Source of the DNA: Escherichia coli
GTDB lineage: Bacteria > Pseudomonadota > Gammaproteobacteria > Enterobacterales > Enterobacteriaceae
Length of the DNA: 64,000 nucleotides
NCBI RefSeq assembly: GCF_044647545.1
Contig: NZ_CP172818.1
Strand: one strand, 5' to 3'
The position numbers and the translations under genes were made by a program. Shown in pieces: positions 14,717 to 39,233 of the stretch (the first letter of the stretch is position 1; the number at the start of each line of letters is the position of its first letter). The notes under the pieces are model-generated. The model had not been told where the DNA came from. It saw only the letters and a program-made list of their open reading frames with translations, and did no database searches.

Positions 14717-14973
14717 CTTGTTCCCCTCTGGTTAGACATGGACGAAAGCTACTCTTACATGTGCAGACTATAGAGAAATAAAACCTGATTGAGTGAAAGG
14801 GTATCGGGTCAAAGAAACAAATATTGCACTACCGCACACTGCGAAAAGATTGTTGAACATCATTCAACAAAAAGGCGAAATACGGCGAATTAAATTTAAG
14901 CGGGTTCTTTTATCAGATTATCGTTGCTATTCGCAATTCATCGAAAACAGCCACAAAAACCAGGGGAATGTGA

Positions 14974-15575
14974 ATGAGTATAAAAAATCTACCTGCCGAC
15001 TATTTATTGGCTGCACAACAGGGTGATATCGATAAAGAAAAACCTGCCTTGCGCTGGGTGTCGATATTAATACCTGCGATCGTCAGGGGAAAACGGCAAT
15101 TACGCTGGCAAGTTTATATCAGCAATATGCTTGCGTTCAGGCATTAATTGATGCCGGAGCGGATATTAATAAGCAAGATCATACTGTTTAAATCCTTTTT
15201 TAATTAGCTGTCTGAACGATGATTTAACGCTACTACGAATTATTTTACCGGCTAACCCGATCTTAATTGCGTAACCCGTTTTGGCGGTGTCGGCCTGACG
15301 CCTGCCTGTGAAAAAGGCCATTTAAGTATTGTAAAAGAGCTTTTGGCGCATACGGAAATTAACGTTAACCAGACCAACCATGTAGGCTGGACGCCGCTAC
15401 TGGAAGCGATTGTGCTTAATGATGGCGGTATTAAACAGCAGGCGATTGTCCAGTATTGCTGGAACATGGTGCCAGTCCGCATCTGACGGATAAATATGGC
15501 AAAACGCCGCTGGAACTGGCGCGGGAACGGGGCTTTGAAGAGATTGCGCAGTTACTGATTGCCGCAGGCGCATAA
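14974..15575 (+). pseudogene. yahD: Ankyrin-repeat protein gene with about four 1-bp deletions
   Basis: ATG at 14974 reads MSIKNLPADYLLAAQQGDIDK then stops; ankyrin-repeat peptide segments recur in shifted frames up to TAA at 15573-15575; span is 602 bp, not a multiple of 3. Confidence 0.65.
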
Positions 15576-15585
15576 CCCGGGAGGC

Positions 15586-16465
15586 TTGCTATCAACACAC
15601 CAGAAAGACGGTGTGTGTGGGCCGCAACTGCGGATGCGGGATTTTCTGGCGCAGCGGGGGCAAGGACAGGTTGAACAGGTCTTTGCCAGAGCGGTAAATA
15701 TCGCACTCCCGGCCGCCAGCAGTTGCTGACGCTGCTTTGTGAAGAGTACGACAATGCGCCAAACAGTTGTCGGTTGGCATCACTCACTTTGATGTCTTTC
15801 GGCATGGTGATAAGGTTCAGTTTGACGATCAAGGCATTACGGTTGGTCAACATCTTCATATAGAGATACGAGTCGTTGTCGGCGTTGGCTGTCCCCAACC
15901 TTGCAAATGACCGCTGTGAATTTTCACCTTATCGCCTGGCTACAGTGGCACGACATTATTCATCAGCACCTGGGGGAAAATGAAACCCTGTTTAATTATC
16001 GCGGCGATAATCCGTTTTATCAGGCGTTAGGTAAAGAATTACATATTAAACGACGGGCAGTTATTCAGGCCGTAAACGATAAACAAAATATCGCCTCAGC
16101 GGTCGCCAGTATGATGGGGTTAGGGATTGGCCTTACGCCATCAGCCGACGATTATTTAACAGGTCTGGCGCTTATTTTATTTATTCCCGGCATCCGGCGG
16201 AAAAATACAAAGAGGAATTTTATCTCGGTCTGCAACGCGGCAAAAATAATACCACATTATTAAGTGCCATAACGCTGGAAGCCGCATTACAACAACGCTG
16301 CCGGGAAAATATTCATCGTTTTATTCACAACATTATTTATGACATCCCTGGGAAAAACCCCGAACTCAGGCAATAGAAAAAATTAAACATATTGGCTCCA
16401 GTTCCGGCTGCGACATGCTGTATGGCATGGCCGATGGTTGTGCGCTGAGCCAAACCTACGGAGGG
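15586..16465 (+). pseudogene. yahE: yahE-like gene, frame fragmented; boundaries approximate
   Basis: Only a 120-aa fragment (track ORF 15901..16263) survives between yahD and yahF; position matches yahE. Confidence 0.35.
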
Positions 16466-16469
16466 AATT

Positions 16470-18009
16470 ATGTCAGTTAAAATAGTCATTAAACCGAATA
16501 CCTATTTTGATTCTGTCTCGCTGATGTCTATCTCCACGCGTGCAAATAAACTCGACGGCGTCGAGCAGGCATTTGTGGCGATGGCGACCGAAATGAATAA
16601 AGGCGTGCTGAAGAATTTAGGACTGCTGACGCCGGAGCTGGAGCAGGCGAAAAACGGCGACCTGATGATTGTCATCAATGGTAAATCGGGTGCGGACAAC
16701 GAGCAGTTGCTGGTGGAGATTGAAGAACTGTTCAACACCAAAGCGCAAAGCGGCTCGCACGAGGCGCGTTACGCCACTATTGGCAGCGCCAAAAAGCATA
16801 TCCCGGAAAGTAACCTGGCGGTGATTTCGGTCAACGGTCTGTTTGCCGCTCGCGAAGCGCGTCAGGCGCTGCAAAACGATCTCAACGTGATGCTGTTTTC
16901 CGATAACGTCTCAGTTGAAGATGAACTGGCGCTCAAGCAACTGGCCCACGAAAAAGGGCTGCTGATGATGGTTAGACTGTGGCACGGCGATTATCAACGG
17001 CGCGGCGCTCTGTTTTGGTAACGCCGTGCGTCGCGGCAACATCGGTATTGTTGGCGCATCCGGCACCGGCAGTCAGGAGTTGAGCGTCCGCATTACTTAA
17101 TTTGGCGGCGGCGTTTCGCAACTGATCGGCACCGGCGGGCCAGCCTGAGCGAGAAATTGGCGGCCTGATGATGCTCGACGCCATCGGGATGCTGGAAAAC
17201 GATCCGCAAACTGAAATCATTGCGCTTATCTCCAAACCGCCTGCGCCTGCGGTGGCCCGCAAAGTGCTGGAACGTGCGCGCGCCTGCCGCAAGCCGGTGG
17301 TCGTCTGCTTCCTCGATCGTGGCGAAACGCCAGTGGATGAGCAGGGGCTACAGTTTGCCCGCGGCACCAAGAGGCAGCGCTAAAAGCGGTGATGCTCTCC
17401 GGCGTGAAACAGGAAAATCTCGACCTGCATACGCTTAACCAGCCGTTGATTGCGGATGTGCGTGCGCGTCTGCAACCGCAGCAGAAATACATTCGTGGCC
17501 TGTTCTGCGGCGGCACGCTGTGCGACGAAACCATGTTCGCGGTGATGGAAAAACATGGCGATGTCTACAGCAACATTCAGCCCGATCCGGAATTCCGCCT
17601 GAAAGATATCAACCGCAGCATCAAACACACCTTCCTCGACTTTGGCGATGACGACTTCACCAACGGCAAGCCGCACCCGATGATTGACCCCACCAACCGC
17701 ATCAGTCGCTTGATCGAAGAGGCGCGCGATCCAGAAGTGGCGGTGATCATGGATTTTGTGCTCGGATTTGGATCGCATGAAGATCCGGTCGGCTCCACCA
17801 TCGAGACGATCAAAGAAGCGAAAGCGATCGCCGCTGCCGAAGGACGCGAGTTGATCATTCTCGCCTATGTGCTGGGTACCGATCTTGATACGCCATCGTT
17901 AGAACAACAAAGCCAGATGCTGCTTGATGCCGGAGTGATTCTGGCGAGCAGCAGCACCAATACCGGATTGCTGGCGCGTGAATTTATCTGCAAAGGGGAG
18001 GAAGCCTGA
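16470..18009 (+). pseudogene. yahF: Succinyl-CoA synthetase alpha-like (CoA-binding) protein gene, split into at least 3 frames
   Basis: Track ORFs 16470..17021, 17168..17383 and 17389..18009 lie in frames 0, 2 and 1 and read as consecutive parts of one protein. Confidence 0.65.
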
Positions 18010-19427
18010 TGAGCCAGTCACTGTTTAGCCAACCATTGAACGTTATTAACGTCGGCATCGCCATGTTTAGCGATGACCTGAAAAAGCAGCATGTAGAAGT
18101 GACTCAACTCGACGGGACGCCGCCGGGGCAGGGCAATATGCAGGTGGTGCAGGCGCTGGATAACATTGCCGATCTTGCCGCTGGCGGACAAAATCGCCGC
18201 CGCTAACCAGCAGGCGCTGGAGCGTATTATCCAGTCGCATCCGGTGCTGATTGGTTTTGATCAGGCGATTAACGTGGTGCCGGGCATGACGGCGAAAACC
18301 ATTCTTCACGCCGGGCCGCCGATCACCTGGGAAAAAATGTGCGGCGCGATGAAAGGCGCGGTCACCGGAGCGCTGGTGTTCGAAGGACTGGCGAAGATCT
18401 CGACGAGGCGGCTGAACTGGCGGCTTCCGGGGAGATCACCTTCTCGCCGTGTCACGAGCACGACTGTGGGATCGATGGCGGGTGTTACCTCGGCCTCGAT
18501 GTTTATGCACATCGTAAAAAACAAAACCTACGGCAACATCGCTTATACCAACATGAGCGAGCAGATGGCGAAGATTTTGCGTATGGGCGCTAACGACCAG
18601 AGCGTGATTGACCGCCTGAACTGGATGCGTGATGTGCAGGGACCAATACTGCGCGACGCGATGAAAATTATCGGCGAAATCGATCTGCGCTTAATGCTGG
18701 CGCAGGCGCTGCGGATAGGGCGATGAGCGCCATAACCGCAATAACGCCGGGACGACACTGCTGATTCAGGCGCTGACGCCGGGGATTATTCAGGCGGGTT
18801 ATTCCGTCGAGCAACAGCGCGAAGTGTTTGAGTTTGTCGCCAGCAGCGACTACTTCTCCGGCCCGACGTGGATGGCGATGTGTAAAGCGGCGATGGATGC
18901 GGCGCATGGCATCGAATACAGCACCGCGGTCACCACCCATGGCGCGTAACGGCGTCGAGTTCGGCATGCGGGTCAGCGGCCTGCGGGGTAATGGTTCAAC
19001 CGGCCCGGCGCAGCAGGTGATCGGCCCGATGTTTGCCGGTTATAAGCCGGAAGATTCGGGGCTGGATATCGGCGACAGCGCCATCACCGAAACCTACGGT
19101 ATTGGCGGATTTGCTATGGCGACCGCGCCCGCTATCGTCGCGCTGGTGGGCGGCACGGTGGAAGAAGCTATTGATTTCTCCCGTCAGATGCGCGAAATCA
19201 CCCTCGGTGAAAACCCCAACGTCACCATTCCGCTGCTCGGTTTTATGGGCGTGCCGTCGGCAATCGACATCACCCGCGTGGGTAGCAGCGGCATTCTGCC
19301 GGTGATCAACACCGCCATCGCCCATAAAGATGCGGGCGTCGGCATGATTGGCGCGGGCATTGTGCATCCACCTTTTGCCTGCTTCGAGAAAGCCATTCTT
19401 GGCTGGTGCGAACGTTACGGCGTCTGA
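18009..19427 (+). pseudogene. yahG: yahG-like (DUF1116) gene with an internal +1 frame segment
   Basis: Track ORFs 18009..18206 (frame 0), 18166..18726 (frame 1) and 18828..19427 (frame 0); total span 1419 bp, a multiple of 3. Confidence 0.6.
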
Positions 19428-19440
19428 CCTACATGTTCAT

Positions 19441-19799
19441 GCCGGATGCGGCGTGAACGCCTTATCCGGCCTACGAATGGCGCAAGAATCTGTAGGCCTG
19501 ATAAGCGTAGCGCATCAGGCATTTGTCACCATTGCCGGATGCGGCGTGAACGCCTTATCCGGCCTACGAATGGCGCAAGAATCTGTAGGCCTGATAAGCG
19601 TAGCGCATCAGGCATTTGCCACCACTGCCGGATGCGGCGTGGACGCCTTATCCGGCCTACGAGTGGCGCGAGAATCTGTAGGCCTGATAAGCGTAGCGCA
19701 TCAGGCATTTGTCACCATTGCCGGATGCGGCGTGAACGCCTTATCCGGCCTACGAGTGGCGCGAGAATTGTAGGCCTGATAAGCGTAGCGCATCAGGCA
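19441..19799. repeat. BIME/REP array, about 3.9 tandem units of 93 bp, each with two REP palindromes
   Basis: Units begin at 19441, 19534, 19627 and 19720 with near-identical sequence GCCGGATGCGGCGTGAACGCCTTATCCGGCCTAC...GTAGGCCTGATAAGCGTAGCGCATCAGGC. Confidence 0.85.
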
Positions 19800-19848
19800 G
19801 TCTGGCGTTGGTCATAACCCCATCACCCTCTGTAGCGGACATAACAAC

Positions 19849-20803
19849 ATGAAAGAGCTTGTGGTCGTTGCCAATGGTGGCAACAGCATTATAGAAAGAT
19901 AACGCCAGCCAGTCGATTGAGCATCAGGCGGAGGCGGTGAAAGCCGTGGCCGATACGGTGCTGGAAATGCTGGCTTCCGATTACGACGTGCTGACCCACG
20001 GTAACGGGCCGCAGGTCGGCTAAGATACGCCGTGCGGAGATTGCCCACGAGCGCGAAGGGCTGCCCTTAACGCCGCTGGCGAACTGTGTGGCAGATACGC
20101 AGGGCGGCATCGGCTATCTGATCCAACAGGCGCTGAATAACCGGCTGGCGCGTCACGGCGAGAAAAAAGCCGTCACCGTGGTAACTCAGGTGGAAGTGGA
20201 TAAAAACGATCCAGGTTTTGCCCATCCACCAAGCCCATTGGTGCATTCTTCAGTGAAAGCCAGCGTGACAAACTACAAAAGGCAAACCCTGACTGGTGTT
20301 TTGTTGAAGATGCCGGACGGGGCTATCGCCGCGTGGTCGCCTCGCCGGAACCGAAACGTATTGTCGGCACCACCATCGCGCGCTGGAGAGATCCAACAAG
20401 GTTTTGTCGTAATTGGCGCGGGCGGCGGTGGAATTCCGGTAGTGCGTACTGAAGCGGGGGATTACCAGAGCGTGGACGCGGTTATTGACAAAGATCTCTC
20501 TACCGCGCTGCTTGTCGCCGTGAAATTCACGCCGACATTCTGGTGATCACCACCGGCGTCGAAAAAGTCTGTATCCACTTTGGTAAACCGCAGCAGCAGG
20601 CGCTGGATCGGGTGGATATTGCCACCATGACTCGCTATATGCAGGAAGGGCATTTTCCGCCCGGCGGCGTGTTGCCAAAAATCATCGCCAGCCTGACGTT
20701 CCTGGAGCAGGGCGGCAAAGAAGTGATTATCACCACGCCGGAATGCCTGCCTGCGGCGCTGCGCGGTGAAACGGGCACCCATATTCTAAACGTAAGGACG
20801 TAG
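19849..20803 (+). pseudogene. yahI: Carbamate kinase-like gene, frameshifted
   Basis: ATG at 19849 reads MKELVVVANGGNSIIER then stops; downstream fragments (track ORFs 20088..20546 and 20543..20803) carry carbamate kinase-like sequence in other frames. Confidence 0.6.
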
Positions 20804-20804
20804 G

Positions 20805-22214
20805 ATGAAAGAAAGCAATAGCCGCCGTGAATTTCTGAGCCAGAGCGGTAAGATGGTCACCGCCGCCGCGCTGTTCGGTACCTCTTTGCCGCTCGCCCAT
20901 GCGGCGGTAGCTGGCACCCTAAACTGCGAAGCGAACAACACCATGAAAATCACTGACCCGCATTACTATCTCGATAACATGCTGCTGGAAACCGGTTTTG
21001 ACTACGAAAACGGTGTGGCGGTGCAGACCCGCACGGCGCGCCAGACCGTGGAGATTCAGGACGGCAAAATTGTCGCCCTGCGCGAGAACAAGCAGCATCC
21101 GGACGCCACGCTGCCGCACTATGACGCTGGCGGTAAGTTGATGCTACCCACCACTCGCGACATGCATATTCATCTCGACAAAACCTTCTACGGCGGGCCG
21201 TGGCGCTCGCTCAATAGTCCGGCAGGCACCACTATCCAGGACATGATCAAGCTTGAGCAGAAAATGCTGCCGGATTACAACCGTATACGCAGGAGCGGGC
21301 GGAAAAACTGATCGATCTATTGCAGTCGAAAGGCACCACCATTGCCCGCAGCCACTGCAATATCGAACCGGTTTGCCGGCCTAAAAAATCTGCAAAATTT
21401 GCAGGCGGTGCTGGCGCGGCGTCGGGCCAGCTCGAGTGTGAAATCGTCGCCTTCCCGCAGCACGGTTTGCTGCTGTCGAGATCGGAACCCTTAATGCGCG
21501 AAGCGATGCAGGCGGGTGCGCATTACGTCGGCGGGCTGGACCCGACCAGTGTCGATGGCGCGATGGAAAGATCCCTCGACACCATGTTTCAGATTGCGCT
21601 GGACTACGACAAAGGTGTCGATATTCACCTGCACGAAACCACTCCATCAGGGCGTGGCAGCCATCAATTATATGGTTGAAACGGTAGAGAAAACGCCGCA
21701 ACTGAAAGGTAAGCTGACCATCAGCCACGCCTTTGCGCTGGCTACGCTCAACGAACAACAGGTCGATGCGCTCGGCGAATCGGATGGCGGCGCAGCAAAT
21801 TTCTATCGCCCTGACGGTGCCGATTGGCACGCTGCATATGCCGCTCAAACAGTTGCACGACAAAGGCGTAAAAGTGATCACTGGCACTGACAGCGTTATC
21901 GACCACTGGTCGCCTTATAGTATCGGCGACATGCTGGAAAAAGCCAATCTCTACGCGCAGCTCTATATTCGTCCTAACGAACAGAACCTCTCCCGTTCGC
22001 TGTTTCTAGCCACTGGCGATATATTGCCGCAATGAAAAAGGCGAGCGTGTATGGCCAAAAGCGCAGGATGATGCCAGCTTTGTGCTGGTGGACGCCTCCT
22101 GTTCCGCCGAGGCGGTGGCGCGTATCTCGCCGAGAACCGCAACGTTCCATAAAGGGCAACTGGTGTGGGGGAGTGTGGCAGGTTGATGCGCATTTGAAAC
22201 GCCTGCAACGGTGA
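20805..22214 (+). pseudogene. yahJ: Amidohydrolase/deaminase-family gene, split into at least 4 frames
   Basis: Track ORFs 20805..21311, 21320..21679, 21516..21890, 21733..22035 and 22032..22214 read as consecutive pieces; metal-binding HxH motif in the first piece. Confidence 0.55.
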
Positions 22215-22563
22215 ATTGTAAAGAGATTTAAGCCCCAGGGAGTGGGGCAATCTGAATATGAGTGTGTCGGCAGAAATGGACATTATCTTTGAGGAATATG
22301 CCCTTATTGACGTTGTGTAGATAACTATTTGTCTACGTGAAAAGATCATCAGTTTTGCCGATTTTAGTCTTTTACAGATAGCAAATATCACACTTACAGG
22401 CGCTCGCCTTATGGGGAACGTTGCTGCTCTGTTTCATTCAGGCTCGCGGCATGTTGGGGCTGGATCGGGTGGTTTAAATATTGGCTATATTCAATGGACG
22501 CGTTTTGCCGCGATGACATATCAGGCGTTGCCAAATACACATAGCTAATCAGGAGTAAACACA

Positions 22564-23613
22564 ATGAAGATCAAAGCTGTTGGTGCATATTCCGCTAAAC
22601 AACCACTTGAACCGATGGATATCACCCGGCGTGAACCGGGACCGAATGATGTCAAAATCGAAATCGCTTACTGTGGCGTTTGCCATTCCGATCTCCACCA
22701 GGTCCGTTCCGAGTGGGCGGGGACGGTTTACCCCTGCGTGCCGGGTCATGAAATTGTGGGGCGTGTGGTAGCCGTTGGTGATCAGGTAGAAAAATATGCG
22801 CCGGGCGATCTGGTCGGTGTCGGCTGCATTGTCGACAGTTGTAAACATTGCGAAGAGTGTGAAGACGGGTTGGAAAACTACTGTGATCACATGACCGGCA
22901 CCTATAACTCGCCGACGCCGGACGAACCGGGCCATACTCTGGGCGGCTACTCACAACAGATCGTCGTTCATGAGCGATATGTTCTGCGTATTCGTCACCC
23001 GCAAGAGCAGCTGGCGGCGGTGGCTCCTTTGTTGTGTGCAGGGATCACCACGTATTCGCCGCTACGTCACTGGCAGGCCGGGCCGGGTAAAAAAGTGGGC
23101 GTGGTCGGCATCGGCGGTCTGGGACATATGGGGATTAAGCTGGCCCACGCGATGGGGGCACATGTGGTGGCATTTACCACTTCTGAGGCAAAACGCGAAG
23201 CGGCAAAAGCCCTGGGGGCCGATGAAGTTGTTAACTCACGCAATGCCGATGAGATGGCGGCTCATCTGAAGAGTTTCGATTTCATTTTGAATACAGTAGC
23301 TGCGCCACATAATCTCGACGATTTTACCACCTTGCTGAAGCGTGATGGCACCATGACGCTGGTTGGTGCGCCTGCGACACCGCATAAATCGCCGGAAGTT
23401 TTCAACCTGATCATGAAACGCCGTGCGATAGCCGGTTCTATGATTGGCGGCATTCCAGAAACTCAGGAGATGCTCGATTTTTGCGCCGAACATGGCATCG
23501 TGGCTGATATAGAGATGATTCGGGCCGATCAAATTAATGAAGCCTATGAGCGAATGCTGCGCGGTGATGTGAAATATCGTTTTGTTATCGATAATCGCAC
23601 ACTAACAGACTGA
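22564..23613 (+). CDS. yahK: Zn-dependent NADPH aldehyde reductase (MDR family)
   Basis: ORF track 22564..23613, 349 aa; GHEIVG zinc motif and GIGGLG Rossmann motif; AGGAG upstream. Confidence 0.9.
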   Translation: MKIKAVGAYSAKQPLEPMDITRREPGPNDVKIEIAYCGVCHSDLHQVRSEWAGTVYPCVPGHEIVGRVVAVGDQVEKYAPGDLVGVGCIVDSCKHCEECEDGLENYCDHMTGTYNSPTPDEPGHTLGGYSQQIVVHERYVLRIRHPQEQLAAVAPLLCAGITTYSPLRHWQAGPGKKVGVVGIGGLGHMGIKLAHAMGAHVVAFTTSEAKREAAKALGADEVVNSRNADEMAAHLKSFDFILNTVAAPHNLDDFTTLLKRDGTMTLVGAPATPHKSPEVFNLIMKRRAIAGSMIGGIPETQEMLDFCAEHGIVADIEMIRADQINEAYERMLRGDVKYRFVIDNRTLTD

Positions 23614-23851
23614 AAAAATTAATAAATACCCTGTGGTTTAACATATTAACTTCGTTCTCCACTTAACTTTTTAGTTAAGGAGAGCGAAATAATATCAAAG
23701 TAGCAGTAAAACCTATAACGTAAATTTAAATTGTTAAATTAACGCCCTCCAGTACACAATACTTCACACGTTAGTTATGAGCGATTTCTGATAGTGCCTG
23801 GTTTAATCAGAGCTTTATTATCTGCGACGTTTATTTTTATTTAGAGATCGC

Positions 23852-24662
23852 GATGATATCATTAAAAGCTCCGCACAATAATTTGATGCCATATACGCAA
23901 CAAAGCATACTTAATACGGTTAAAAACAATCAGTTACCAGAGGATATCAAAAGCGCCTGGTTTCCTGTGTCGATATATTCAAGGTTTTGATTAAACAATA
24001 TTATGATTATCCTTATGATTGTCGTGATGATTTAGTCGATGACGACAAACTCATTCATCTCATGGCTGCCGTACGAGACTGTGAGTGGTCAGACGATAAC
24101 GCACTCACCATAAATGTGCAGTTTAATGATTTCCCTGGATTTTATGACTGGATGGATTACCCTGATCACCCGGTTAGGGTTACTTCATACTTGAAAATCA
24201 AAAAGGGACAGTTTGGGTATATGACCAGGATGATGCGTTTCTTGATATTAAAGCAAACGTGCAGGCTGGACGCTTTACCGGGCTTAAGAAATTAGTGCAG
24301 TTTATCGATTCAGTGCGAACAGATTGCAAATGTATTCTTCTTGAATACCATATGCCTTTGCTGAGAATTTTCCCTAAAGGGAAAGAGTGTATGCATGTGG
24401 AAAAATGGCTTCGCGAAATGTCGTCTATTCCGGAGACAGACGCGCCCATTAAGCAGGCGCTTGCGCATGGATTATTATTACACTTAAAAAATATCTACCC
24501 TGTTTTCCTGAATCACTGGTGATGTTATTGCTCTCTGTTCTGGACGTAAAAACATACAGAGATGATGCGCGATTAAATGAATGGATATCTAATAGAGTGC
24601 AGGAATTAGGTGACAGATATTATCCTGTAAATAAGCACGTTAAAATCCGCTACACTCTTTAG
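23852..24662 (+). pseudogene. yahL: yahL-like gene, frameshifted; boundaries approximate
   Basis: ATG at 23852 stops after about 45 codons; track ORFs 23987..24295 and 24259..24522 continue in other frames. Confidence 0.4.
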
Positions 24663-25176
24663 TTCAGAAAGGGTTCCACCTGCAAGTTGTTATTCCACCT
24701 GAGAGTGAATCGCAATGCAGGTAATCATTTCATCTGTATATCTGTATGCCAACTGGCATTCCATCTCTTTTTTCGCCGATATTTTGTGTGATCGGCGACA
24801 CTTCGCTTAAAAAAGCACCAGTAGTGGTTTCGCAGCCATGCGGTGTATAAAAAATGATCTCATGCAGATGTTTTGTGAATGTGTTGGTTGACATTCATAT
24901 GAAAAAAATCATAATTCCATCATGTTTGTGTGGGGTCTTTTCTGTATCTTACGCATCGCACTCAAGCCTGACAGAAAATATGCTGTAAGGCTCATATAAA
25001 AAACGCCATTAGCTCATCAGGAAGAGCAGACGACAACCAGGATTGTTGTATGGTACGGGGTTCGAGGCCTCGATGGCGGTCCAACTTTCAAAACTCTTCT
25101 GAATCAGATCCCCTTATTATCATCCCTGCAAAGTGGAACATTGCCATTGTTTGGCTATTCAGGATGGGGCAGACCA

Positions 25177-25356
25177 ATGAAAAAAGCCCACACAGGGGAG
25201 AGTGGGCTGAAATGGGAAGCTAAAGACTCAAGTAAACTTATCGGAAATAAGGACCACGCATCAGGGGCTATCATCGCCGATGGCCGTGATTCGGCAAATC
25301 AGGTTGATTACGTAGAGAGTAAATTATCTGCTCACCGCTGCGTCACCCCTTCGTAA
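25177..25356 (+). CDS. Small hydrophilic ORF (59 aa from ATG) in the yahM position; identity uncertain
   Basis: Part of track ORF 25141..25356; promoter-like TTGACA-N17-ATAATT at 24888-24916 lies upstream. Confidence 0.2.
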   Translation: MKKAHTGESGLKWEAKDSSKLIGNKDHASGAIIADGRDSANQVDYVESKLSAHRCVTPS

Positions 25357-26003
25357 ATCAGGCGTAGCGCGAATACACCAATAATTGCACCAATAACCCG
25401 ACTGGCAACGCGTTGCATACGCCCATAAGCACGACGCACAGCGGGCAAAGAAAACGCCTGACTAAGAAAAACTCGCCAGATAATTGATGCGAGCACAATC
25501 CCCGCCCAGGCCATTAAACGTGCCCATGTTGGTGTTTCGGCATTTAATGTTACTGAGAAAATACTGATAAAAAATAAAACGGTTTGCGGGTTAGAGAGAT
25601 CGGTAATTAATCCGCGGCGAAAAAAGACATACCAGGGGGCGCTAATCGGTTGTTGTAGTGTGCTCATTTGCGGTGTTGACTGGCGGCGCATGCTGCACCA
25701 CGCAAACCATAAGAGATAAGCGCCGCCGACGATTCTGATAAGCGAAAAAATCTCCTCACACTGCGTAATTAGCGTTGCAAGACCAAACAAACCCAACCCG
25801 GAATAAAATGCATCGCCCAGCGCCACGCCCAGCCCGGTCAGCACCCCTGCGCGTCGACCGGAAGCCAGGCTGGTTTGTACTACCACAAAGAGATTGGCTC
25901 CCGGATTAAAAAAAGTAATCACGAACAGTCCTACGGTCAGGTAAACGGCATGCAAAGGATCCATAGTGATTTCATCCATAAATAAGTGAACTAACTGCAT
26001 CAT
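25332..26003 (-). CDS. yahN: LysE/RhtB-family amino acid exporter
   Basis: ORF track 25332..26003, 223 aa, multi-TM. Confidence 0.85.
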   Translation of the reverse strand: MMQLVHLFMDEITMDPLHAVYLTVGLFVITFFNPGANLFVVVQTSLASGRRAGVLTGLGVALGDAFYSGLGLFGLATLITQCEEIFSLIRIVGGAYLLWFAWCSMRRQSTPQMSTLQQPISAPWYVFFRRGLITDLSNPQTVLFFISIFSVTLNAETPTWARLMAWAGIVLASIIWRVFLSQAFSLPAVRRAYGRMQRVASRVIGAIIGVFALRLIYEGVTQR

Positions 26004-26149
26004 ATTTCTACCAAAAATAATCGGGTGCGAGAGAGATCACAAAGTGTCTTATTTCCGGTTACTGGCGTTTATGCCCTGACTGAACTAATTATTAATCAAC
26101 CCAATAATGTGGGTGGGTGATAGTGTGATAACAACTCTGGAGCCGTAAT

Positions 26150-26425
26150 ATGAAAATAATCTCTAAAATGTTAGTCGGTGCGTTAGCGTTAGCCGTTACC
26201 AATGTCTATGCCGCTGAATTGATGACCAAAGCGGAATTTGAAAAAGTTGAATCGCAGTATGAAAAAATAGGTGATATTTCAACCAGCAATGAAATGTCGA
26301 CTGCAGATGCAAAAGAAGATTTGATCAAAAAAGCGGATGAAAAAGGGGCTGATGTGTTGGTACTGACCTCCGGTCAAACTGACAATAAGATCCACGGCAC
26401 GGCAAATATTTATAAGAAGAAGTAA
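26150..26425 (+). CDS. yahO: Small secreted protein (YdgH/BhsA/McbA-like, DUF1471)
   Basis: ORF track 26150..26425, 91 aa, signal peptide [21 protein letters not shown]. Confidence 0.8.
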
Positions 26426-26522
26426 TTCTGAATCCTATGTAAACATCTCCGATGCGTAAGTTTATCGGTGATCATCTATTGAAATTTATGCCGGATAAAG
26501 CGTTCGCGCTGCATTCGGCAGT

Positions 26523-28109
26523 TCAGCTTTTCAGCCGCCGCCAGAACGTCGTCCGGCTGATGCCTAAATAATTCGCCGCTGCTGTTTTATCGCCATTAAA
26601 TTTCTCCAGTGCCTGTTGTGGTGTCAGTAAGCGTGGAGCGGGAGTTTTCGCCGACTCGCGCGCCAGTTCCGGCAGTAGCAGTTGCATAAACTGCGGCGTT
26701 AAATCCGGCGTCGGTTCCACACTTAAAAACAGCGCCAGTCGTTCCATCATATTGCGCAGTTCACGAATATTGCCTGGCCAGTCGTAGTGCAGCAGCACAG
26801 TTTCACTTGCCTGTAACCCCTGGCGTAATGCAGCAGAAAATGGGGCGGAGAGCGCCGCCAGAGACACTTTCAAAAAGCTTTCCGCCAGCGGAAGAATATC
26901 CGCCACCCGCTCGCGCAGTGGTGGCAATTGCAGACGCAAAATACTCAGCCGATAAAACAGATCACGGCGAAAACGTCCTTGCTGCATATCTTCTTCCAGA
27001 TTGCAGTGAGTGGCGCTAATGACCCGTACATCTACCGGAACAGGCTGATGCCCGCCGACGCGGGTGACCTCTTTTTCTTCCAGCACCCGCAGCAGCCGGG
27101 TCTGCAAAGGTAGCGGCATTTCGCCAATCTCATCCAGAAACAGCGTACCGCCGTGGGCAATTTCGAACAGCCCGGCGCGACCTCCGCGTCGCGAGCCGGT
27201 AAACGCCCCTTCCTCATAGCCAAACAGTTCTGCTTCCAGCAGCGATTCGGCAATCGCCCCGCAGTTGACGGCAACAAACGGATGCGACTTTTTGCCCTGT
27301 CGCGCATCGTGGCGGGCAAAATATTCCCGATGAATCGCCTGGGCCGCCAGCTCTTTGCCCGTCCCCGTTTCCCCCTCAATCAACACCGCCGCACTGGAGC
27401 GGGCATACAGCAAAATAGTCTGCCGTACTTGTTCCATCTGTGGTGATTGACCGAGCATATCGCCCAGCACGTAACGAGTACGCAGGGCGTTGCGGGTGGC
27501 ATCGTGAGTGTTATGGCGTAACGACATGCGCGTCATATCCAGCGCATCGCTGAACGCCTGGCGCACGGTGGCGGCGGAATAGATAAAAATTCCGGTCATT
27601 CCGGCTTCTTCTGCCAAATCGGTAATCAGCCCTGCGCCGACCACCGCTTCGGTGCCGTTAGCTTTTAGCTCGTTAATCTGCCCGCGTGCGTCTTCCTCGG
27701 TAATGTAGCTACGTTGGTCGAGGCGCAAATTAAAGGTTTTTTGAAACGCCACCAGCGCTGGAATGGTTTCCTGATAGGTGACAACGCCGATAGAAGAGGT
27801 GAGTTTTCCGGCTTTTGCCAGTGCCTGTAACACATCGTAGCCGCTCGGTTTAATCAAAATAACTGGCACTGACAGGCGGCTTTTCAGGTACGCGCCGTTA
27901 GAGCCAGCCGCGATGATGGCGTCACAGCGTTCGTTTGCCAGTTTCTTGCGGATGTAGGTCACTGCTTTTTCAAAGCCAAGCTGAATAGGGGTAATGTTCG
28001 CCAGGTGATCAAACTCGAGGCTGATATCGCGAAACAGCTCGAACAGGCGCGTTACAGATACCGTCCAGATAACCGGTTTGTCGTCATTAAGCCGTGGTGG
28101 ATGTGCCAT
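26523..28109 (-). CDS. prpR: Sigma-54-dependent activator of the propionate operon (AAA+ enhancer-binding protein)
   Basis: ORF track 26523..28121; ATG at 28109; GAFTGA motif and Walker A GETGTGKE present. Confidence 0.9.
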
Positions 28110-28285
28110 AGCGCACCGCAAAGTTAAGAAACCGAATATTGGGTTTAGTCTTGTTTCATAATTGTTGCAATGAAACGCGGTGAAACATTGCCTGAAACGT
28201 TAACTGAAACGCATATTTGCGGATTAGTTCATGACTTTATCTCTAACAAATTGAAATTAAACATTTAATTTTATTAAGGCAATTG

Positions 28286-28301
28286 TGGCACACCCCTTGC
28301 T
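28286..28301 (+). promoter_or_regulatory. Sigma-54 (-24/-12) promoter TGGCAC-N5-TTGCT upstream of prpB
   Basis: TGGCACACCCCTTGCT read directly about 47 bp upstream of the prpB ATG; matches RpoN consensus. Confidence 0.65.
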
Positions 28302-28347
28302 TTGTCTTTATCAACGCAAATAACAAGTTGATAACAAAGGATGGGCT

Positions 28348-29304
28348 ATGTCTCTACACTCTCCAGGTAAAGCGTTTCGCGCTGCACTGACTAAAGAAAA
28401 TCCATTGCAGATTGTTGGCACCATCAACGCTAATCATGCGCTGTTGGCGCAGCGTGCCGGATATCAGGCAATTTATCTTTCTGGCGGTGGCGTGGCGGCA
28501 GGTTCGCTGGGGCTGCCCGATCTCGGTATTTCTACCCTTGATGATGTGCTGACCGACATTCGCCGTATCACCGACGTTTGTTCGCTGCCGCTGCTGGTGG
28601 ATGCGGATATCGGTTTTGGTTCTTCGGCCTTTAACGTGGCGCGCACCGTGAAATCGATGATTAAAGCCGGTGCGGCAGGATTGCATATTGAAGATCAGGT
28701 TGGTGCGAAACGCTGCGGTCATCGTCCGAATAAAGCGATCGTCTCGAAAGAAGAGATGGTGGATCGGATCCGCGCGGCGGTGGATGCGAAAACCGATCCT
28801 GATTTTGTGATCATGGCGCGCACCGATGCTCTGGCGGTAGAGGGGCTGGATGCGGCGATCGAGCGTGCGCAGGCCTATGTTGAAGCGGGTGCCGAGATGT
28901 TGTTCCCGGAGGCGATTACCGAACTCGCCATGTACCGCCAGTTTGCCGATGCGGTGCAGGTGCCGATCCTCGCCAATATTACCGAATTTGGCGCAACACC
29001 GCTGTTTACTACCGATGAATTACGCAGTGCCCATGTTGCAATGGCGCTGTACCCGCTTTCAGCGTTTCGCGCCATGAACCGCGCCGCCGAACATGTCTAC
29101 AACGTCCTGCGTCAGGAAGGCACGCAGAAAAGCGTCATCGACACCATGCAAACCCGCAACGAGCTGTACGAAAGCATCAATTACTACCAGTACGAAGAGA
29201 AGCTCGACGACCTGTTTGCCCGTAGCCAGGCGAACCCCCCCCCCCCCCCCCACAACGAAAAATATCTCGACCCTACAAAAAAAAAAATGACGAGGACAAT
29301 ATGA
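28348..29304 (+). CDS. prpB: 2-methylisocitrate lyase; the C-terminus runs through a C17 tract, giving an aberrant tail
   Basis: ORF track 28348..29304, 318 aa; sequence is lyase-like up to FARSQ, then [24 protein letters not shown] encoded by the homopolymer region. Confidence 0.7.
29235..29251. repeat. Homopolymer tract C17, followed by A11 at 29277-29287
   Basis: Counted directly in the sequence. Confidence 0.9.
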
Positions 29305-30468
29305 GCGACACAACGATCCTGCAAAACAGTACCCATGTCATTAAACCGAAAAAATCGGTAGCACTTTCTGGCGTTCCGGCGGGCAATACGGCGCTCTGCA
29401 CCGTGGGTAAAAGTGGCAATGACTTGCATTACCGTGGTTACGATATTCTTGATCTGGCGGAACATTGCGAATTTGAAGAAGTGGCGCATCTGCTGATCCA
29501 CGGCAAACTGCCGACCCGTGACGAACTCGCCGCCTACAAAACGAAACTGAAAGCCCTGCGCGGTTTACCGGCTAACGTGCGTACCGTGCTGGAAGCCTTA
29601 CCGGCGGCGTCGCACCCGATGGATGTTATGCGCACCGGCGTTTCCGCGCTCGGCTGCACGCTGCCAGAAAAAGAGGGGCATACCGTCTCTGGCGCGCGGG
29701 ATATTGCCGACAAACTGCTGGCGTCACTTAGCTCGATTCTTCTCTACTGGTATCACTACAGCCACAACGGCGAACGCATTCAGCCGGAAACCGATGACGA
29801 CTCCATCGGCGGTCACTTCCTGCATCTGCTGCATGGCGAAAAGCCGTCGCAAAGCTGGGAAAAGGCGATGGAGATCCGCTGGTGCTGTACGCCGAACACG
29901 AGTTTAACGCCTCCACCTTTACCAGCCGGGTGATCCGGCGGGCACCGGCTCTGATATGTATTCCGCGATTATTGGCGCGATTGGTGCACTGCGCGGCTGA
30001 AGCACGGCGGGGCGAATGAAGTGTCGCTGGAGATCCAGCAACGCGACGAAACGCCGGACGAAGCCGAAGCCGATATCCGCAAGCGGGTGGAAAACAAAGA
30101 AGTGGTCATTGGTTTTGGTCATCCGGTTTATACCATCGCCGACCCGCGTCATCAGGTGATCAAACGTGTGGCGAAGCAGCTCTCGCAGAAGGCGGCTCGC
30201 TGAAGATGTACAACATCGCCGATCGCCTGGAAACGGTGATGTGGGAGAGCAAAAGATGTTCCCCAATCTCGACTGGTTCTCCGCTGTTTCCTACAACATC
30301 AGGGGCTTTCCCACCGAGACGTTCACCCCACTGTTTGTTATCGCCCGCGTCACCGGCTGGGCGGCGCACATTATCGAACAACGTCAGGACAACAAAATTA
30401 TCCGTCCTTCCGCCAATTATGTTGGACCGGAAGCACGCCCGTTTGTCGCGCTGGATAAGCGCCAGTAA
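29301..30468 (+). pseudogene. prpC: 2-methylcitrate synthase gene, split into at least 3 frames
   Basis: Track ORFs 29301..29933, 30021..30203 and 30166..30468 read as consecutive citrate synthase-family segments; span 1168 bp. Confidence 0.7.
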
Positions 30469-30501
30469 ACCTCTACGAATAACAATAAGGAAACGTACCC
30501 A

Positions 30502-31952
30502 ATGTCAGCTCAAATCAACAACATCCGCCCGGAATTTGATCGTGAAATCGTTGATATCGTCGATTACGTCATGAACTACGAAATCAGCTCCAAAGCAGCC
30601 TACGACACCGCCCATTACTGCCTGCTCGACACGCTCGGCTGCGGTCTTGAAGCTCTCGAATACCCGGCCTGTAAAAAACTGCTGGGGCCAATTGTCCCCG
30701 GCACCGTCGTCCCCAACGGCGCGCGCGTCCCCGGAACTCAGTTCCAGCTCGACCCCGTCCAGGCGGCATTTAACATCGGCGCGATGATCCGCTGGCTCGA
30801 TTTCAACGATACCTGGCTGGCGGCGGAGTGGGGCCATCCTTCCGACAACCTCGGCGGCATTCTGGTACGGCGGACTGGCTTTCGCGCAACGCGGTCGCCA
30901 GCGGCAAAGCGCCGTTGACCATGAAACAGGTGCTGACCGCAATGATCAAAGCCCATGAAATTCAGGGCTGCATCGCGCTGGAAAACTCCTTTAACCGCGT
31001 CGGCCTCGACCACGTTCTGTTAGTGAAAGTGGCTTCCACCGCCGTGGTCGCCGAAATGCTCGGCCTGACCCGCGAGGAAATTCTCAACGCCGTTTCGCTG
31101 GCGTGGGTGGACGGTCAGCCGCTGCGCACCTATCGCCATGCGCCGTAACACCGGCACGCGTAAATCCTGGGCGGCGGGCGATGCCACTTCCCGCGCGGTA
31201 CGTCTGGCACTGACGGCGAAAACGGGCGAAATGGGTTACCCGTCAGCCCTGACTGCGCCGGTGTGGGGCTTCTACGACGTCTCCTTTAAAGGTGAGTCGT
31301 TCCGCTTCCAGCGCCCGTACGGTTCCTACGTTATGGAAAATGTGCTGTTCAAAATCTCCTTCCCGGCGGAGTTCCACTCCCAGACGGCAGTTGAAGCAGC
31401 GATGACGCTCTATGAACAGATGCAGGCAGCAGGCAAAACGGCGGCGGATATCGAAAAAGTGACCATTCGCACCCACGAAGCCTGTATTCGCATCATCGAC
31501 AAAAAAGGACCGCTCAATAACCCGGCAGACCGCGATCACTGCATTCAGTACATGGTGGCGATCCCGCTGCTGTTCGGGCGCTTAACGGCGGCAGATTACG
31601 AGGACAACGTTGCGCAAGATAAACGCATCGACGCCCTGCGCGAGAAGATCAATTGCTTTGAAGATCCGGCATTTACCGCTGACTACCACGACCCGGAAAA
31701 ACGCGCCATCGCCAATGCCATTACCCTTGAGTTCACCGACGGACGCGATTTGAAGAAGTGGTGGTGGAGTACCCCATTGGTCATGCTCGCCGCCGTCAGG
31801 ATGGTATTCCGAAACTGGTCGATAAATTCAAAATCAATCTCGCGCGCCAGTTCCCGACTCGCCAACAGCAGCGCATTCTGGAGGTTTCTCTCGACAGAGC
31901 TCGCCTGGAACAGATGCCGGTCAATGAGTATCTCGACCTGTACGTCATTTAA
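30502..31952 (+). pseudogene. prpD: 2-methylcitrate dehydratase gene, split into at least 3 frames
   Basis: Track ORFs 30502..30918, 30828..31148, 31138..31956 and 31758..31952; span 1451 bp. Confidence 0.7.
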
Positions 31953-31990
31953 GTAAACGGCGGTAAGGCGTAAGTCAACAGGAGACCATT

Positions 31991-33871
31991 ATGTTTTAGC
32001 GAATTTTATCAGCGTTCGATTAACGAACCGGAGCAGTTCTGGGCCGAGCAGGCCGTGTATTGACTGGCAGACGCCCTTTACGCAAACGCTCGATCACAGC
32101 AATCCGCCGTTTGCCCGTTGGTTTTGTGAAGGCTGAACCAACTTGTGCACAACGCTATCGACCGCTGGCTGGAGAAACAGCCAGAGGCGCTGGCGCTGAT
32201 TGCCGTCTCTTCGGAAACAGAAGAAGAGCGCACCTTTACCTTTCGTCAGCTGCATGACGAAGTGAACGCGGTGGCCTCAATGTTGCGTTCATTGGGCGTG
32301 CAGCGTGGCGATCGGGTGCTGGTGTATATGCCGATGATTGCCGAAGCGCATATTACTCTGCTGGCCTGCGCGCGCATTGGCGCTATTCACTCGGTGGTGT
32401 TTGGGGGATTTGCCTCGCACAGCGTGGCGGCGCGAATTGATGATGCTAAACCGGTGCTGATTGTCTCGGCTGATGCCGGAGCGCGCGGTGGCAAAATCAT
32501 TCCCTATAAAAAATTGCTCGACGATGCGATAAGTCAGGCGCAGCACCAGCCACGCCATGTTTTGCTGGTGGATCGCGGGCTGGCGAAAATGGCGCGCGTC
32601 AGCGGGCGGGATGTCGATTTCGCGTCGTTGCGCCATCAACACATCGGCGCGCGGGTACCGGTGGCGTGGCTGGAATCCAACGAAACCTCCTGCATTCTCT
32701 ACACCTCCGGCACGACCGGCAAACCTAAAGGCGTGCAGCGTGACGTCGGCGGATATGCGGTGGCGCTGGCGACCTCGATGGACACCATTTTTGGCGGCAA
32801 AGCGGGCGGTGTGTTCCTTTGTGCTTCGGATATCGGCTGGGTGGTGGGGCGTTCTATATCGTCTACGCGCCGCTGCTGGCGGGGATGGCGACTATCGTTT
32901 ACGAAGGATTACCGACCTGGCCGGACTGCGGCGTGTGGTGGAAAATCGTCGAGAAATATCAGGTTAGCCGGATGTTCTCAGCGCCGACCGCCATTCGCGT
33001 GCTGAAAAAATTCCCTACCGCTGAAATTCGCAAACACGATCTCTCGTCGCTGGAAGTGCTCTATCTGGCTGGAGAACCGCTGGACGAGCCGACCGCCAGT
33101 TGGGTGAGCAATACGCTGGATGTGCCGGTGATCGACAACTACTGGCAGACCGAATCCGGCTGGCCGATTATGGCGATTGCTCGCGGTCTGGACGACAGGC
33201 CGACGCGTCTGGGAAGCCCCGGTGTGCCGATGTATGGCTATAACGTGCAGTTGCTTAATGAAGTCACCGGCGAACCGTGTGGCGTCAACGAGAAAGGGAT
33301 GCTGGTGGTGGAAGGGCCGCTGCCGCCGGGGTGTATTCAGACCATCTGGGGCGACGACGGCCGCTTTGTGAAGACTTACTGGTCGCTGTTTTCCCGCCCG
33401 GTGTACGCCACCTTTGACTGGGGCATCCGTGACGCTGACGGTTATCACTTTATTCTCGGGCGCACTGACGATGTGATTAACGTTGCCGGGCATCGGCTGG
33501 GGACGCGCGAGATTGAAGAGAGTATCTCCAGCCATCCGGGCGTTGCCGAAGTGGCGGTGGTTGGGGTGAAAGATGCGCTGAAAGGGCAGGTGGCGGTGGC
33601 GTTTGTCATTCCGAAAGAGAGCGACAGTCTGGAAGATCGTGATGTGGCGCACTCGCAAGAGAAGGCGATTATGGCGCTGGTGGACAGCCAGATTGGCAAC
33701 TTTGGCCGCCCGGCGCACGTCTGGTTTGTCTCGCAATTGCCAAAAACGCGATCCGGAAAAATGCTGCGCCGCACGATCCAGGCGATTTGCGAAGGACGCG
33801 ATCCTGGAGATCTGACGACCATTGATGATCCTGCGTCGTTGGATCAGATCCGCCAGGCGATGGAAGAGTAG
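31991..33871 (+). pseudogene. prpE: Propionyl-CoA synthetase gene, frameshifted
   Basis: ATG at 31991 followed by TTT TAG; track ORFs 32145..33005 and 32819..33871 carry acyl-CoA synthetase sequence in different frames. Confidence 0.7.
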
Positions 33872-33876
33872 GTTAT

Positions 33877-34050
33877 TGTCGGATGCGTCGCGCGGCGCAT
33901 CCGGCACTGGTGCCGATGCCTGATGCGACGCTGACGCGTCTTATCATGCCTACGGACCTGAACCGTAGGTCGGATAAGGCGCTCGCGCCGCATCCGACAC
34001 CATGCTCAGATGCCTGATGCGACGCTGACGCGTCTTATCAGGCCTACCCA
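33877..34050. repeat. BIME cluster of about 4 REP palindromes between prpE and codB
   Basis: Repeated GCCTGATGCGACGCTGACGCGTCTTATCAGGCCTAC-type palindromes read directly. Confidence 0.7.
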
Positions 34051-34117
34051 CTGTTTTTACACCGATAATTTTTCCCCCACCTTTTTGCACTCATTCATAT
34101 AAAAAATATATTTCCCC

Positions 34118-34135
34118 ACGAAAACGATTGCTTTT
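34118..34135. promoter_or_regulatory. PUR-box-like sequence ACGAAAACGATTGCTTTT upstream of codB
   Basis: About 12 of 16 matches to the ACGCAAACGTTTGCGT PurR consensus; codBA is purine-regulated in E. coli. Confidence 0.3.
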
Positions 34136-34199
34136 TATCTTCAGATGAATAGAATGCGGCGGATTTTTTGGGTTTCAAACAGCAAAAAGGGGGAATTTC

Positions 34200-35455
34200 G
34201 TGTCGCAAGATAACAACTTTAGCCAGGGGCCAGTCCCGCAGTCGGCGCGGAAAGGGGTATTGGCATTGACGTTCGTCATGCTGGGATTAACCTTCTTTTC
34301 CGCCAGTATGTGGACCGGCGGCACTCTGGAACCGGTCTTAGCTATCATCAATTCTTTCCTCGCAGTTCTCATCGGTAATCTTCTCCTCGGTATTTACACT
34401 TGATTTCTCGGTTACATTGGCGCAAACCGGCCTGACCACTCATCTTCTTGCTCGCTTCTGGTTTGGTGTTAAAGGCTCATGGCTGCCTTCACTGCTACTG
34501 GGCGGAACTCAGGTTGGCTGGTTTGGCGTCGGTGTGGCGATGTTTGCCATTTCGGTGGGTAAGGCAACCGGGCTGGATATTAATTTGCTGATTGCCGTTT
34601 CCGGTTTACTGATGACCGTCACCGTCTTTTTTGGCATTTGGCGCTGACGGTTCTTTCGGTGATTGCGGTTCCGGCTATCGCCTGCCTGGGCGGTTATTCC
34701 GTGTGGCTGGCTGTTAACGGCATGGGCGGCCTGGACGCATTAAAAGCGGTCGTTCCCGCACAACCGTTAATTTCAATCTCGCGCTGGCGCTGGTTGTGGT
34801 CATTTTCTGGTGGGTACGCTCGCCGCTGGCGCCTTTTGTCCGGTTTGGTCGCAATGCCAAACTGGCGGTGCTGGTGGCGATGGTGGCCTTTTTCCTCGGC
34901 AACTGGTTGATGTTTATTTTCGGTGCAGCGGGCGCTGCGGCACTGCGCATGGCGGATATCTCTGATGTGATGATTGCTCAGGGCCTGCTGCTGCCTGCGA
35001 TTGTGGTGCTGGGGCTGAATATCTGGACCACCAACGATAACGCACTCTATGCGTCGGGTTTAGGTTTCGCCAACATTACCGGGATGTCGAGCAAAACCCT
35101 TTCGGTAATCAACGGTATTATCGGTACGGTCTGCGCATTATGGCTGTATAACAATTTTGTCGGCTGGTTGACCTTCCTTTCGGCAGCTATTCCTCCAGTG
35201 GGTGGCGTGATCATCGCCGACTATCTGATGAACCGTCGCCGCTATGAGCACTTTGCGACCACGCGTATGATGAGTGTCAATTGGGTGGCGATTCTGGCGG
35301 TCGCCTTGGGGATTGCTGCAGGCCACTGGTTACCGGGAATTGTTCCGGTCAACGCGGTATTAGGTGGCGCGCTGAGCTATCTGATCCTTAACCCGATTTT
35401 GAATCGTAAAACGACAGCAGCAATGACGCATGTGGAGGCTAACAGTGTCGAATAA
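34200..35455 (+). pseudogene. codB: Cytosine permease gene, split into 4 frame segments
   Basis: Track ORFs 34200..34403, 34417..34647, 34638..34910 and 34796..35455 read as consecutive permease segments; span 1256 bp. Confidence 0.7.
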
Positions 35456-36728
35456 CGCTTTACAAACAATTATTAACGCCCGGTTACCAGGCGAAGAGGG
35501 GCTGTGGCAGATTCATCTGCAGGACGGAAAAATCAGCGCCATTGATGCGCAATCCGGCGTGATGCCCATAACTGAAAACAGCCTGGATGCCGAACAAGGT
35601 TTAGTTATACCGCCGTTTGTGGAGCCACATATTCACCTGGACACCACGCAAACCGCCGGACAACCGAACTGGAATCAGTCCGGCACGCTGTTTGAAGGCA
35701 TTGAACGCTGGGCCGAGCGCAAAGCGTTATTAACCCATGACGATGTGAAACAACGCGCATGGCAAACGCTGAAATGGCAGATTGCCAACGGCATTCAGCA
35801 TGTGCGTACCCATGTCGATGTTTCGGATGCAACGCTAACTGCGCTGAAAGCAATGCTGGAAGTGAAGCAGGAAGTCGCGCCGTGGATTGATCTGCAAATC
35901 GTCGCCTTCCCTCAGGAAGGGATTTTGTCGTATCCCAACGGTGAAGCGTTGCTGGAAGAGGCGTTACGCTTAGGGGCAGATGTAGTGGGGGCGATTCCGC
36001 ATTTTGAATTTACCCGTGAATACGGCGTGGAGTCGCTGCATAAAACCTTCGCCCTGGCGCAAAAATACGACCGTCTCATCGACGTTCACTGTGATGAGAT
36101 CGATGACGAGCAGTCGCGCTTTGTCGAAACCGTTGCTGCCCTGGCGCACCATGAAGGCATGGGCGCGCGAGTCACCGCCAGCCACACCACGGCAATGCAC
36201 TCCTATAACGGGGCGTATACCTCACGCCTGTTCCGCTTGCTGAAAATGTCCGGTATTAACTTTGTCGCCAACCCGCTGGTCAATATTCATCTGCAAGGAC
36301 GTTTCGATACGTATCCAAAACGTCGCGGCATCACGCGCGTTAAAGAGATGCTGGAGTCCGGCATTAACGTCTGCTTTGGTCACGATGATGTCTTCGATCC
36401 GTGGTATCCGCTGGGAACGGCGAATATGCTGCAAGTGCTGCATATGGGGCTGCATGTTTGCCAGTTGATGGGCTACGGGCAGATTAACGATGGCCTGAAT
36501 TTAATCACCCACCACAGCGCAAGGACGTTGAATTTGCAGGATTACGGCATTGCCGCCGGAAACAGCGCCAACCTGATTATCCTGCCGGCTGAAAATGGGT
36601 TTGATGCGCTGCGCCGTCAGGTTCCGGTACGTTATTCGGTACGTGGCGGCAAGGTGATTGCCAGCACACAACCGGCACAAACCACCGTATATCTGGAGCA
36701 GCCAGAAGCCATCGATTACAAACGTTGA
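35445..36728 (+). CDS. codA: Cytosine deaminase, GTG start
   Basis: ORF track 35430..36728; GTG at 35445 gives 427 aa; HxH metal motif PHIHLD. Confidence 0.9.
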
Positions 36729-36750
36729 ACGACTGGGTTACAGCGAGCTT

Positions 36751-37964: not shown

Positions 37965-38072
37965 TCGCAACCTATAAGTAAATCCAATGGAACTCATCAT
38001 AAATGAGACTTTTACCTTATGACAATCGGCGAGTAGTCTGCCTCTCATTCCAGAGACAGACAGAGGTTAACG

Positions 38073-38732: not shown

Positions 38733-38744
38733 CCTTATTTTTAA

Positions 38745-39233
<489 letters not shown>

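Follow-up and report, generated by a model that had tools for sequence, protein, structure and literature searches.

Frame disruptions in yahG and its neighbours in an Escherichia coli contig: probable consensus errors within a mosaic segment

We analysed the yahG gene in a stretch of 64,000 nucleotides of Escherichia coli DNA (assembly GCF_044647545.1, contig NZ_CP172818.1), which is referred to as the window in the following. The gene, a homologue of the AllG/DUF1116 family, is present over its full length as DNA, but its open reading frame (ORF) is disrupted at several places. The frameshift pattern probably reflects a locally poor consensus quality in a patchwork assembly, rather than gene decay or recoding, and the disruption of yahG is most likely an ordinary one that represents no biological feature. 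The evidence comes from the alignment of yahG with intact copies, from the distribution of similar lesions over the yahD-codB region, and from a comparison of that region with the DNA on either side of it. The coordinates of all features are collected in Table 1.

Seven length-changing events in yahG

The yahG of the window aligns end-to-end with that of K-12 (1419/1419 bp, 98.8% nucleotide identity), from the ATG start at 18009 to the TGA at 19425-19427, which confirms the span of exactly 1419 bp that was reported in a first-pass annotation of the sequence. The alignment contains seven length-changing events with a net sum of zero (+1, -1, -2, +1, +1, -1, +1), and the same seven gap openings were obtained against each of the genomes of K-12, FDAARGOS_497, BS-04, HS-01 and TKEC21-59. 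As the seven gaps recur with every reference, it is the window that deviates, and the lesions are private to it. They are accompanied by five isolated substitutions (18114, 18728, 18927, 18966 and 18989), all of them nonsynonymous; the last one, a C>T change, sits between the sixth and the seventh event.

With K-12 YahG as the tblastn query, the homology is far above chance (segment E-values reported as 0) and follows a path through three frames: frame 0 for 18009-18173, +1 for 18174-18393, 0 for 18394-18465, +1 for 18466-18716, +2 for 18717-18935 and again 0 for 18936-19427, except for an excursion of 14 nt at 18984-18997. There is no intact ORF of ~472 codons and stops are present in every frame; the first in-frame premature stop is found at 18204-18206, and the product from the native start has 65 amino acids (aa). 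In K-12 YahG the AllG domain (PF06545, 'oxamate carbamoyltransferase subunit AllG') comprises residues 143-357, and a Pfam search of the window recovers the domain divided among the ORF fragments of yahG (E = 1e-28 and 1e-10). The K-12 gene is a paralogue of ylbE/allG, which encodes a subunit of oxamate carbamoyltransferase.

The locus order is that of K-12: fdrA/yahF is located 5' of yahG and overlaps it by 1 nt, and 3' of yahG follow the yahH cluster of repetitive extragenic palindromic (REP) sequences and yahI-yahJ. The position of yahG between fdrA/yahF and yahI is likewise collinear with all five genomes compared. The window copy thus has the length and the gene neighbours of the K-12 gene as well as a recognisable AllG domain, but it alone carries seven indel events and five nonsynonymous substitutions and has AllG spread over three frames.

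The alignment changes the earlier description of the gene in several respects. The first and the last fragment had been placed in one frame, and indeed both ORFs are in frame 0. A middle part of ~600 bp had been assigned to the +1 frame; the ORF at 18166-18726 is real, but it includes 72 nt that are out of the YahG frame, and a +2 segment of 219 nt had been missed. One deletion and one compensating insertion had been postulated, and an alignment to an intact yahG had been named beforehand as the observation that could overturn this model. With seven events, a path through three frames and multiple premature stops in that alignment, the two-indel model fails. Finally, the first-pass annotation had used length-preserving pairs of indels as an argument for noise. 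The argument is invalid because yahG is the only one of the 12 damaged genes in the region with a net change of zero; its net-zero length is a coincidence, and equal gene length should not be taken as evidence for 'paired' indels. The preference of that annotation for a noisy consensus over decay still corresponds to the best-supported reading, but on grounds other than length preservation.

A yahG that covers at least 80% of the query was present in 5,019 of the 5,426 complete E. coli genomes that were searched, with a closest match of 98.9% identity. No lesion of the window was found in common with any of these 5,426 genomes, and the best match over 10.4 kb has an identity of 98.1%. The 29-mer that covers event 3, CACGAGCACGACTGTGGGATCGATGGCGG, had no match in 100,044 species-representative genomes or in the metagenomes of the Joint Genome Institute (JGI). 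At the protein level, a collection of ~15 billion proteins contains the exact product of the frame +1 ORF a single time, on an NCBI contig of 4,499,902 bp; the other broken ORF products that were found in the protein collection are each on that one contig only, and all of them are without a protein accession. Frameshifted YahG fragments that occur elsewhere in the protein database were considered as relatives and rejected, their lesions being different and unrelated.

Damaged and undamaged sub-blocks in a mosaic segment

Gaps were found in 12 of the 56 K-12 genes that were compared with the window (2-10 gap openings per damaged gene), and the other 44 genes were gap-free. The net change in length was: yahD -4, yahE +2, fdrA (yahF) -8, yahG 0, yahI -4, yahJ -1, yahL -6, yahM -3, prpC -2, prpD -1, prpE -4 and codB -4. 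An event was counted as private when the window differs at a site where at least three of four references agree (five-way alignment, positions 14,700-36,800). This yielded 134 event clusters, 125 of which are located in four noisy sub-blocks with a joint length of 13.7 kb (6-11 private events per kb, about 9 overall). No private event falls in the ~12 kb of interleaved DNA that matches K-12 at 100% identity; the 6.4 kb at 34947-41301 is equally 100% identical in many wild phylogroup-A strains. The gap counts were independent of the reference used (five references, three natural haplotypes).

Within the noisy sub-blocks, 69 length-changing events (50 deletions, 19 insertions) stand against 47 isolated substitutions, and the intergenic DNA in these sub-blocks also carries events. 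Over the aligned region as a whole, 50 of the 134 clusters are complex or multi-base, e.g. those at 20367-20389 and 34797-34834. Two characteristics of consensus errors were found: the events are confined to one assembly and occur where relatives are invariant, and their density does not depend on coding status, with sharp transitions between good and bad stretches, although several of these edges are near gene ends. The private substitutions and 1-bp deletions in the noisy sub-blocks favour pyrimidines on the plus strand (47:24, P about 0.009), a bias that fits errors derived from few reads of one orientation.

Three potential correlates of the events were considered. The GC content is 0.40-0.57 in the noisy and 0.50-0.58 in the clean sub-blocks, and there is no relation. 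Errors at methylation motifs, as known for Nanopore, do not apply either, with five events at no more than 3 nt from GATC/CCWGG where 6.1 are expected. Lastly, the 21 single-base deletions comprise nine in runs of 1 and six in runs of at least 3 (background 54% and 17%, respectively), which is only a weak bias toward homopolymer-driven errors or slippage.

The damaged genes are part of a 26-kb segment that resembles K-12 and sequence type 10 (ST10), and that is embedded in a background like that of FDAARGOS_497. A three-way alignment places the switch points between the haplotypes within 14880-14977 and 41302-41577. The flanks (1-14879 and 41578-64000) are near-identical to FDAARGOS_497, with one single-nucleotide polymorphism (SNP) in ~37 kb, and to several clinical isolates, among them ECONIH1 and MS6198. 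Because the flanks have changed so little and the interleaved ~12 kb is unchanged, the evolutionary time available was too short for 13.7 kb to acquire >100 mutations. The same mosaic was not found in any complete RefSeq E. coli genome. The 26-kb segment results from true recombination or else from an assembly that joined two strains.

Beneath the noise layer the segment contains polymorphism that, judged by its pattern, appears natural. In yahI-yahJ the third-codon-position polymorphism vanishes when BS-04 is taken as the reference, what is left being private noise at positions where BS-04 does not differ from K-12. At the 3' end of prpB (28977-29181) there are third-position transitions and no indels; seven of these are private to all four references, and eight are counted when the comparison is made with K-12 and FDAARGOS_497. 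The possibility that the clean sub-blocks are a patch taken from a laboratory K-12 reference was rejected as not demonstrable, the 6.4 kb being shared with wild isolates and yahI-J being BS-04-like. The yahH region (19428-19848) is a tandem array of ~four 93-bp units of the REP/bacterial interspersed mosaic element (BIME) type, K-12-identical between two noisy sub-blocks; this spacer is much shorter in FDAARGOS_497 and BS-04.

The combined pattern could have arisen as follows. During a chimeric or hybrid assembly, a second haplotype would have been built into a chromosome like that of FDAARGOS_497; in one version, the 26-kb region would have been filled from another strain, or another type of data, of low coverage. 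Short-read contigs or polished stretches of good accuracy would then be interspersed with unpolished long-read bridges of low depth, and the noisy stretches would carry ~0.9% of random-looking errors (1-bp deletions, which exceed the insertions, as well as substitutions and short garbled patches). Being part of one such error-bearing sub-block, yahG would have gained seven indel events that sum to zero by chance. A clone that is able to lose nearly this region could have had it filled from another source, and ECONIH1 provides a lead in this direction, though a lead only, as the edges do not match. In that genome (NZ_CP009859.1, 375500-381000) a deletion mediated by the insertion sequence (IS) IS1 extends from just past yahC into lacY, which corresponds to 14749-41672 of the window. 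The filling of precisely this gap was rejected, since the window is FDAARGOS_497-like at 14858-14879 and at 41578 and the edges thus differ.

A known class of artefact consists of spurious 'frameshifted genes' that arise from indel errors in hybrid assemblies or in long-read assemblies of low depth or without polishing. The window resembles what is generally known of such artefacts in its deletion bias, the density of ~1%, the disruption of every gene in the affected stretch, the presence of events in intergenic DNA as well, the restriction to one assembly and the two-state distribution. It is unlike that class in that the errors show little concentration at homopolymers and none at Dam/Dcm sites, are limited to parts of 26 kb and have edges at gene ends. 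Until the reads have been checked, the twelve yahD-codB 'pseudogenes' should not be read as biology, and therefore no loss of the carbamoyltransferase/carbamate-kinase pathway, of propionate catabolism or of cytosine uptake should be inferred from them; the same caution applies to the apparent strain mosaic.

Observations against a consensus artefact and alternative explanations

Several observations weigh against an origin by consensus errors. Of the six noisy/clean edges, four come within ~40 bp of a gene end (14933, 22220, 23655 and 29234; the remaining two are at 25263 and 34946). Such gene-end edges are not predicted by an assembly artefact and have a rough chance of ~0.01, with flexible definitions. 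The isolated substitutions are nonsynonymous throughout in yahG (5/5) and in codB (7/7, 34200-35455), a result that is slightly surprising for random error (P about 0.03), and none of these 12 is at codon position 3. The events in the noisy blocks show no clean signature of a sequencing platform: no Dam/Dcm enrichment was found and there is little homopolymer bias. Furthermore, the K-12-like donor haplotype is itself plausible as a natural mosaic, and the chimera could be a real recombinant. Because of the gene-end edges, the 12 nonsynonymous changes out of 12 and the lack of a clear platform signature, the explanations that invoke real lesions or an engineered sequence were kept under consideration.

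It is unlikely that the damaged genes are real pseudogenes, in which yahD-J, yahLM, prpCDE and codB were freed from selection, decayed by multiple hits as in Shigella, and were then recombined into the present chromosome. Such a history would agree with damage that is limited to 12 genes and leaves 44 others untouched, with block edges that follow gene or operon units (yahK and its promoter region are intact), with a deletion bias (50:19) like that of bacterial pseudogene decay and with a contig that is small for the clone (4.50 Mb versus 5.23 Mb). As in Shigella, contiguous metabolic genes (yah, prp, codB) are frameshifted and deletions exceed insertions. The window differs, however, in having 2-10 gap openings per gene with almost no substitutions, in the private nature of the lesions, which are absent from all relatives among the 5,426 genomes, and in the absence of IS elements from the block. 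The neighbours show zero divergence: the ~12 kb of interleaved genes contain no substitutions, synonymous ones included, and the flanks have the single SNP mentioned above. Selection as a filter does not rescue decay, because ~9 synonymous changes are expected in the ~10 kb of intact neighbours (a number scaled from the density of the five isolated substitutions in yahG) and none was seen. Indels outnumber isolated substitutions (seven versus five in yahG), where natural divergence would produce the reverse, and they are only weakly associated with homopolymers and are accompanied by garbled multi-base patches.

A sequence that was engineered, synthesised or altered in silico (by error-prone synthesis or polymerase chain reaction, by patching with a reference, or by simulation or generation) is quite improbable. 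It would explain why the damage follows gene units, why single-base deletions dominate, as they do among oligonucleotide-synthesis errors, and why unnatural tracts of 17 C and 11 A occur at a gene junction; the clean sub-blocks are exactly K-12, and the segment nearly matches the ECONIH1 deletion. On the other hand, many wild phylogroup-A isolates match the clean sub-blocks just as exactly, natural third-position polymorphism of a non-K-12 haplotype is present in yahI-J and at the 3' end of prpB, the switch points differ from the ends of the ECONIH1 deletion, and no cassette, scar or vector sequence was found.

There is only a slim chance that the lesions are real and result from a localized, indel-rich hypermutation of a freshly imported 26-kb K-12-like segment, by a process not yet known. 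Such hypermutation would, at an equally slim chance, have spared the yahK, yahN-prpB and codA-lacA transcription units and scrambled others while the rest of the chromosome gained ~1 SNP. Should the lesions prove real, against expectation, a two-state, gene-delimited and indel-dominated pattern bordering on unaltered DNA would be very unusual and would merit a follow-up.

Programmed ribosomal frameshifting or recoding, by which yahG would be expressed and its +1 segment would be functional, is suggested by three long ORF pieces in the frames 0, +1 and 0 with an overlap at 18166-18206, but it is practically out of the question and excluded by the alignments: translation would have to shift seven times and use three frames, every one of these shifts corresponds to a private indel with respect to the references, all five of which have a single frame of 472 codons, and the +1 ORF reads 18394-18465 out of frame.

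Feature coordinates and further quality anomalies

Table 1. Positions in the window of yahG, its ORF fragments and length-changing events, the sub-blocks of the mosaic segment and two homopolymer tracts. Strand is given where it applies.
Feature	Position	Strand	Description
yahG homologue, AllG/DUF1116 family	18009..19427	+	full length as DNA, ORF disrupted
yahG ORF fragment 1	18009..18206	+	frame 0, 65 aa, native start to first premature stop
yahG ORF fragment 2	18166..18726	+	frame +1, 561 bp, 186 aa; holds 72 nt out of YahG frame
yahG ORF fragment 3	18828..19427	+	frame 0, 199 aa; YahG match only from 18936 on
YahG residues 238-310	18717..18935	+	frame +2, 219 nt (tblastn)
yahG event 1	18174..18176	+	TC>CTT, +1 insertion of C plus C>T; frame 0 to +1; references unanimous against window
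yahG event 2	18393..18394	+	1-bp A deletion in GAAAG; frame +1 to 0
yahG event 3	18465..18466	+	2-bp deletion, CTGCGTGGG>CTGTGGG; frame 0 to +1
yahG event 4	18713..18717	+	complex, ATAT>GGATA, net +1; frame +1 to +2
yahG event 5	18936	+	1-bp C insertion; frame +2 to 0
yahG events 6 and 7	18983..18998	+	C deletion at 18983, T>CA at 18997-18998; 14-nt frame excursion
K-12/ST10-like segment	14880..41577		26 kb, yahD to lacY 3' end, inside FDAARGOS_497-like background
Noisy sub-block 1	14933..18998		yahD, yahE, fdrA/yahF, yahG to 18998; 36 private events, 8.9 per kb
Clean sub-block	18999..19873		yahG 3' 430 bp, yahH REP cluster, yahI start; 0 private events, K-12-identical
Noisy sub-block 2	19874..22220		yahI, yahJ; 25 private events atop natural BS-04-like haplotype
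Clean sub-block	22221..23654		yahK with 343 bp upstream and 41 bp downstream; 100% identical to K-12
Noisy sub-block 3	23655..25263		yahL, yahM, intergenic DNA; 10 private events
Indel-free sub-block	25264..29233		yahN, yahO, prpR, prpB; 100% K-12-identical up to 28976
Noisy sub-block 4	29234..34946		prpB stop codon, prpC, prpD, prpE, codB; 54 private events
Clean sub-block	34947..41301		codB 3' end, codA, cynRTSX, lacA, lacY 3' end; 100% identical to K-12
C17 homopolymer	29235..29251	+	replaces 'ATAAAA', removes prpB stop codon
A11 homopolymer	29277..29287	+	relatives have A3; prpB-prpC spacer

The C17 and A11 tracts are the only runs of at least nine bases in the 64-kb window; as an effect of the former, the PrpB product has 318 aa with a proline-rich tail. 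The flanks contain three private deletions: 2 bp at 4933 and at 60053, and 5 bp at 54210. The two 2-bp deletions hit genes that are intact in relatives, encoding a ykgH-like hypothetical protein and an acetyltransferase, and a direct search for these two deletions gave no match in any complete genome; the 5-bp deletion is intergenic and is absent from the flank-identical genomes that were compared. In the yaiL-fghA spacer (56204-56300) a REP is duplicated and garbled with respect to FDAARGOS_497, with many deletions of 1-3 bp, mostly of G or C. The flanks, which are nearly perfect otherwise, thus also show more private indels than SNPs.

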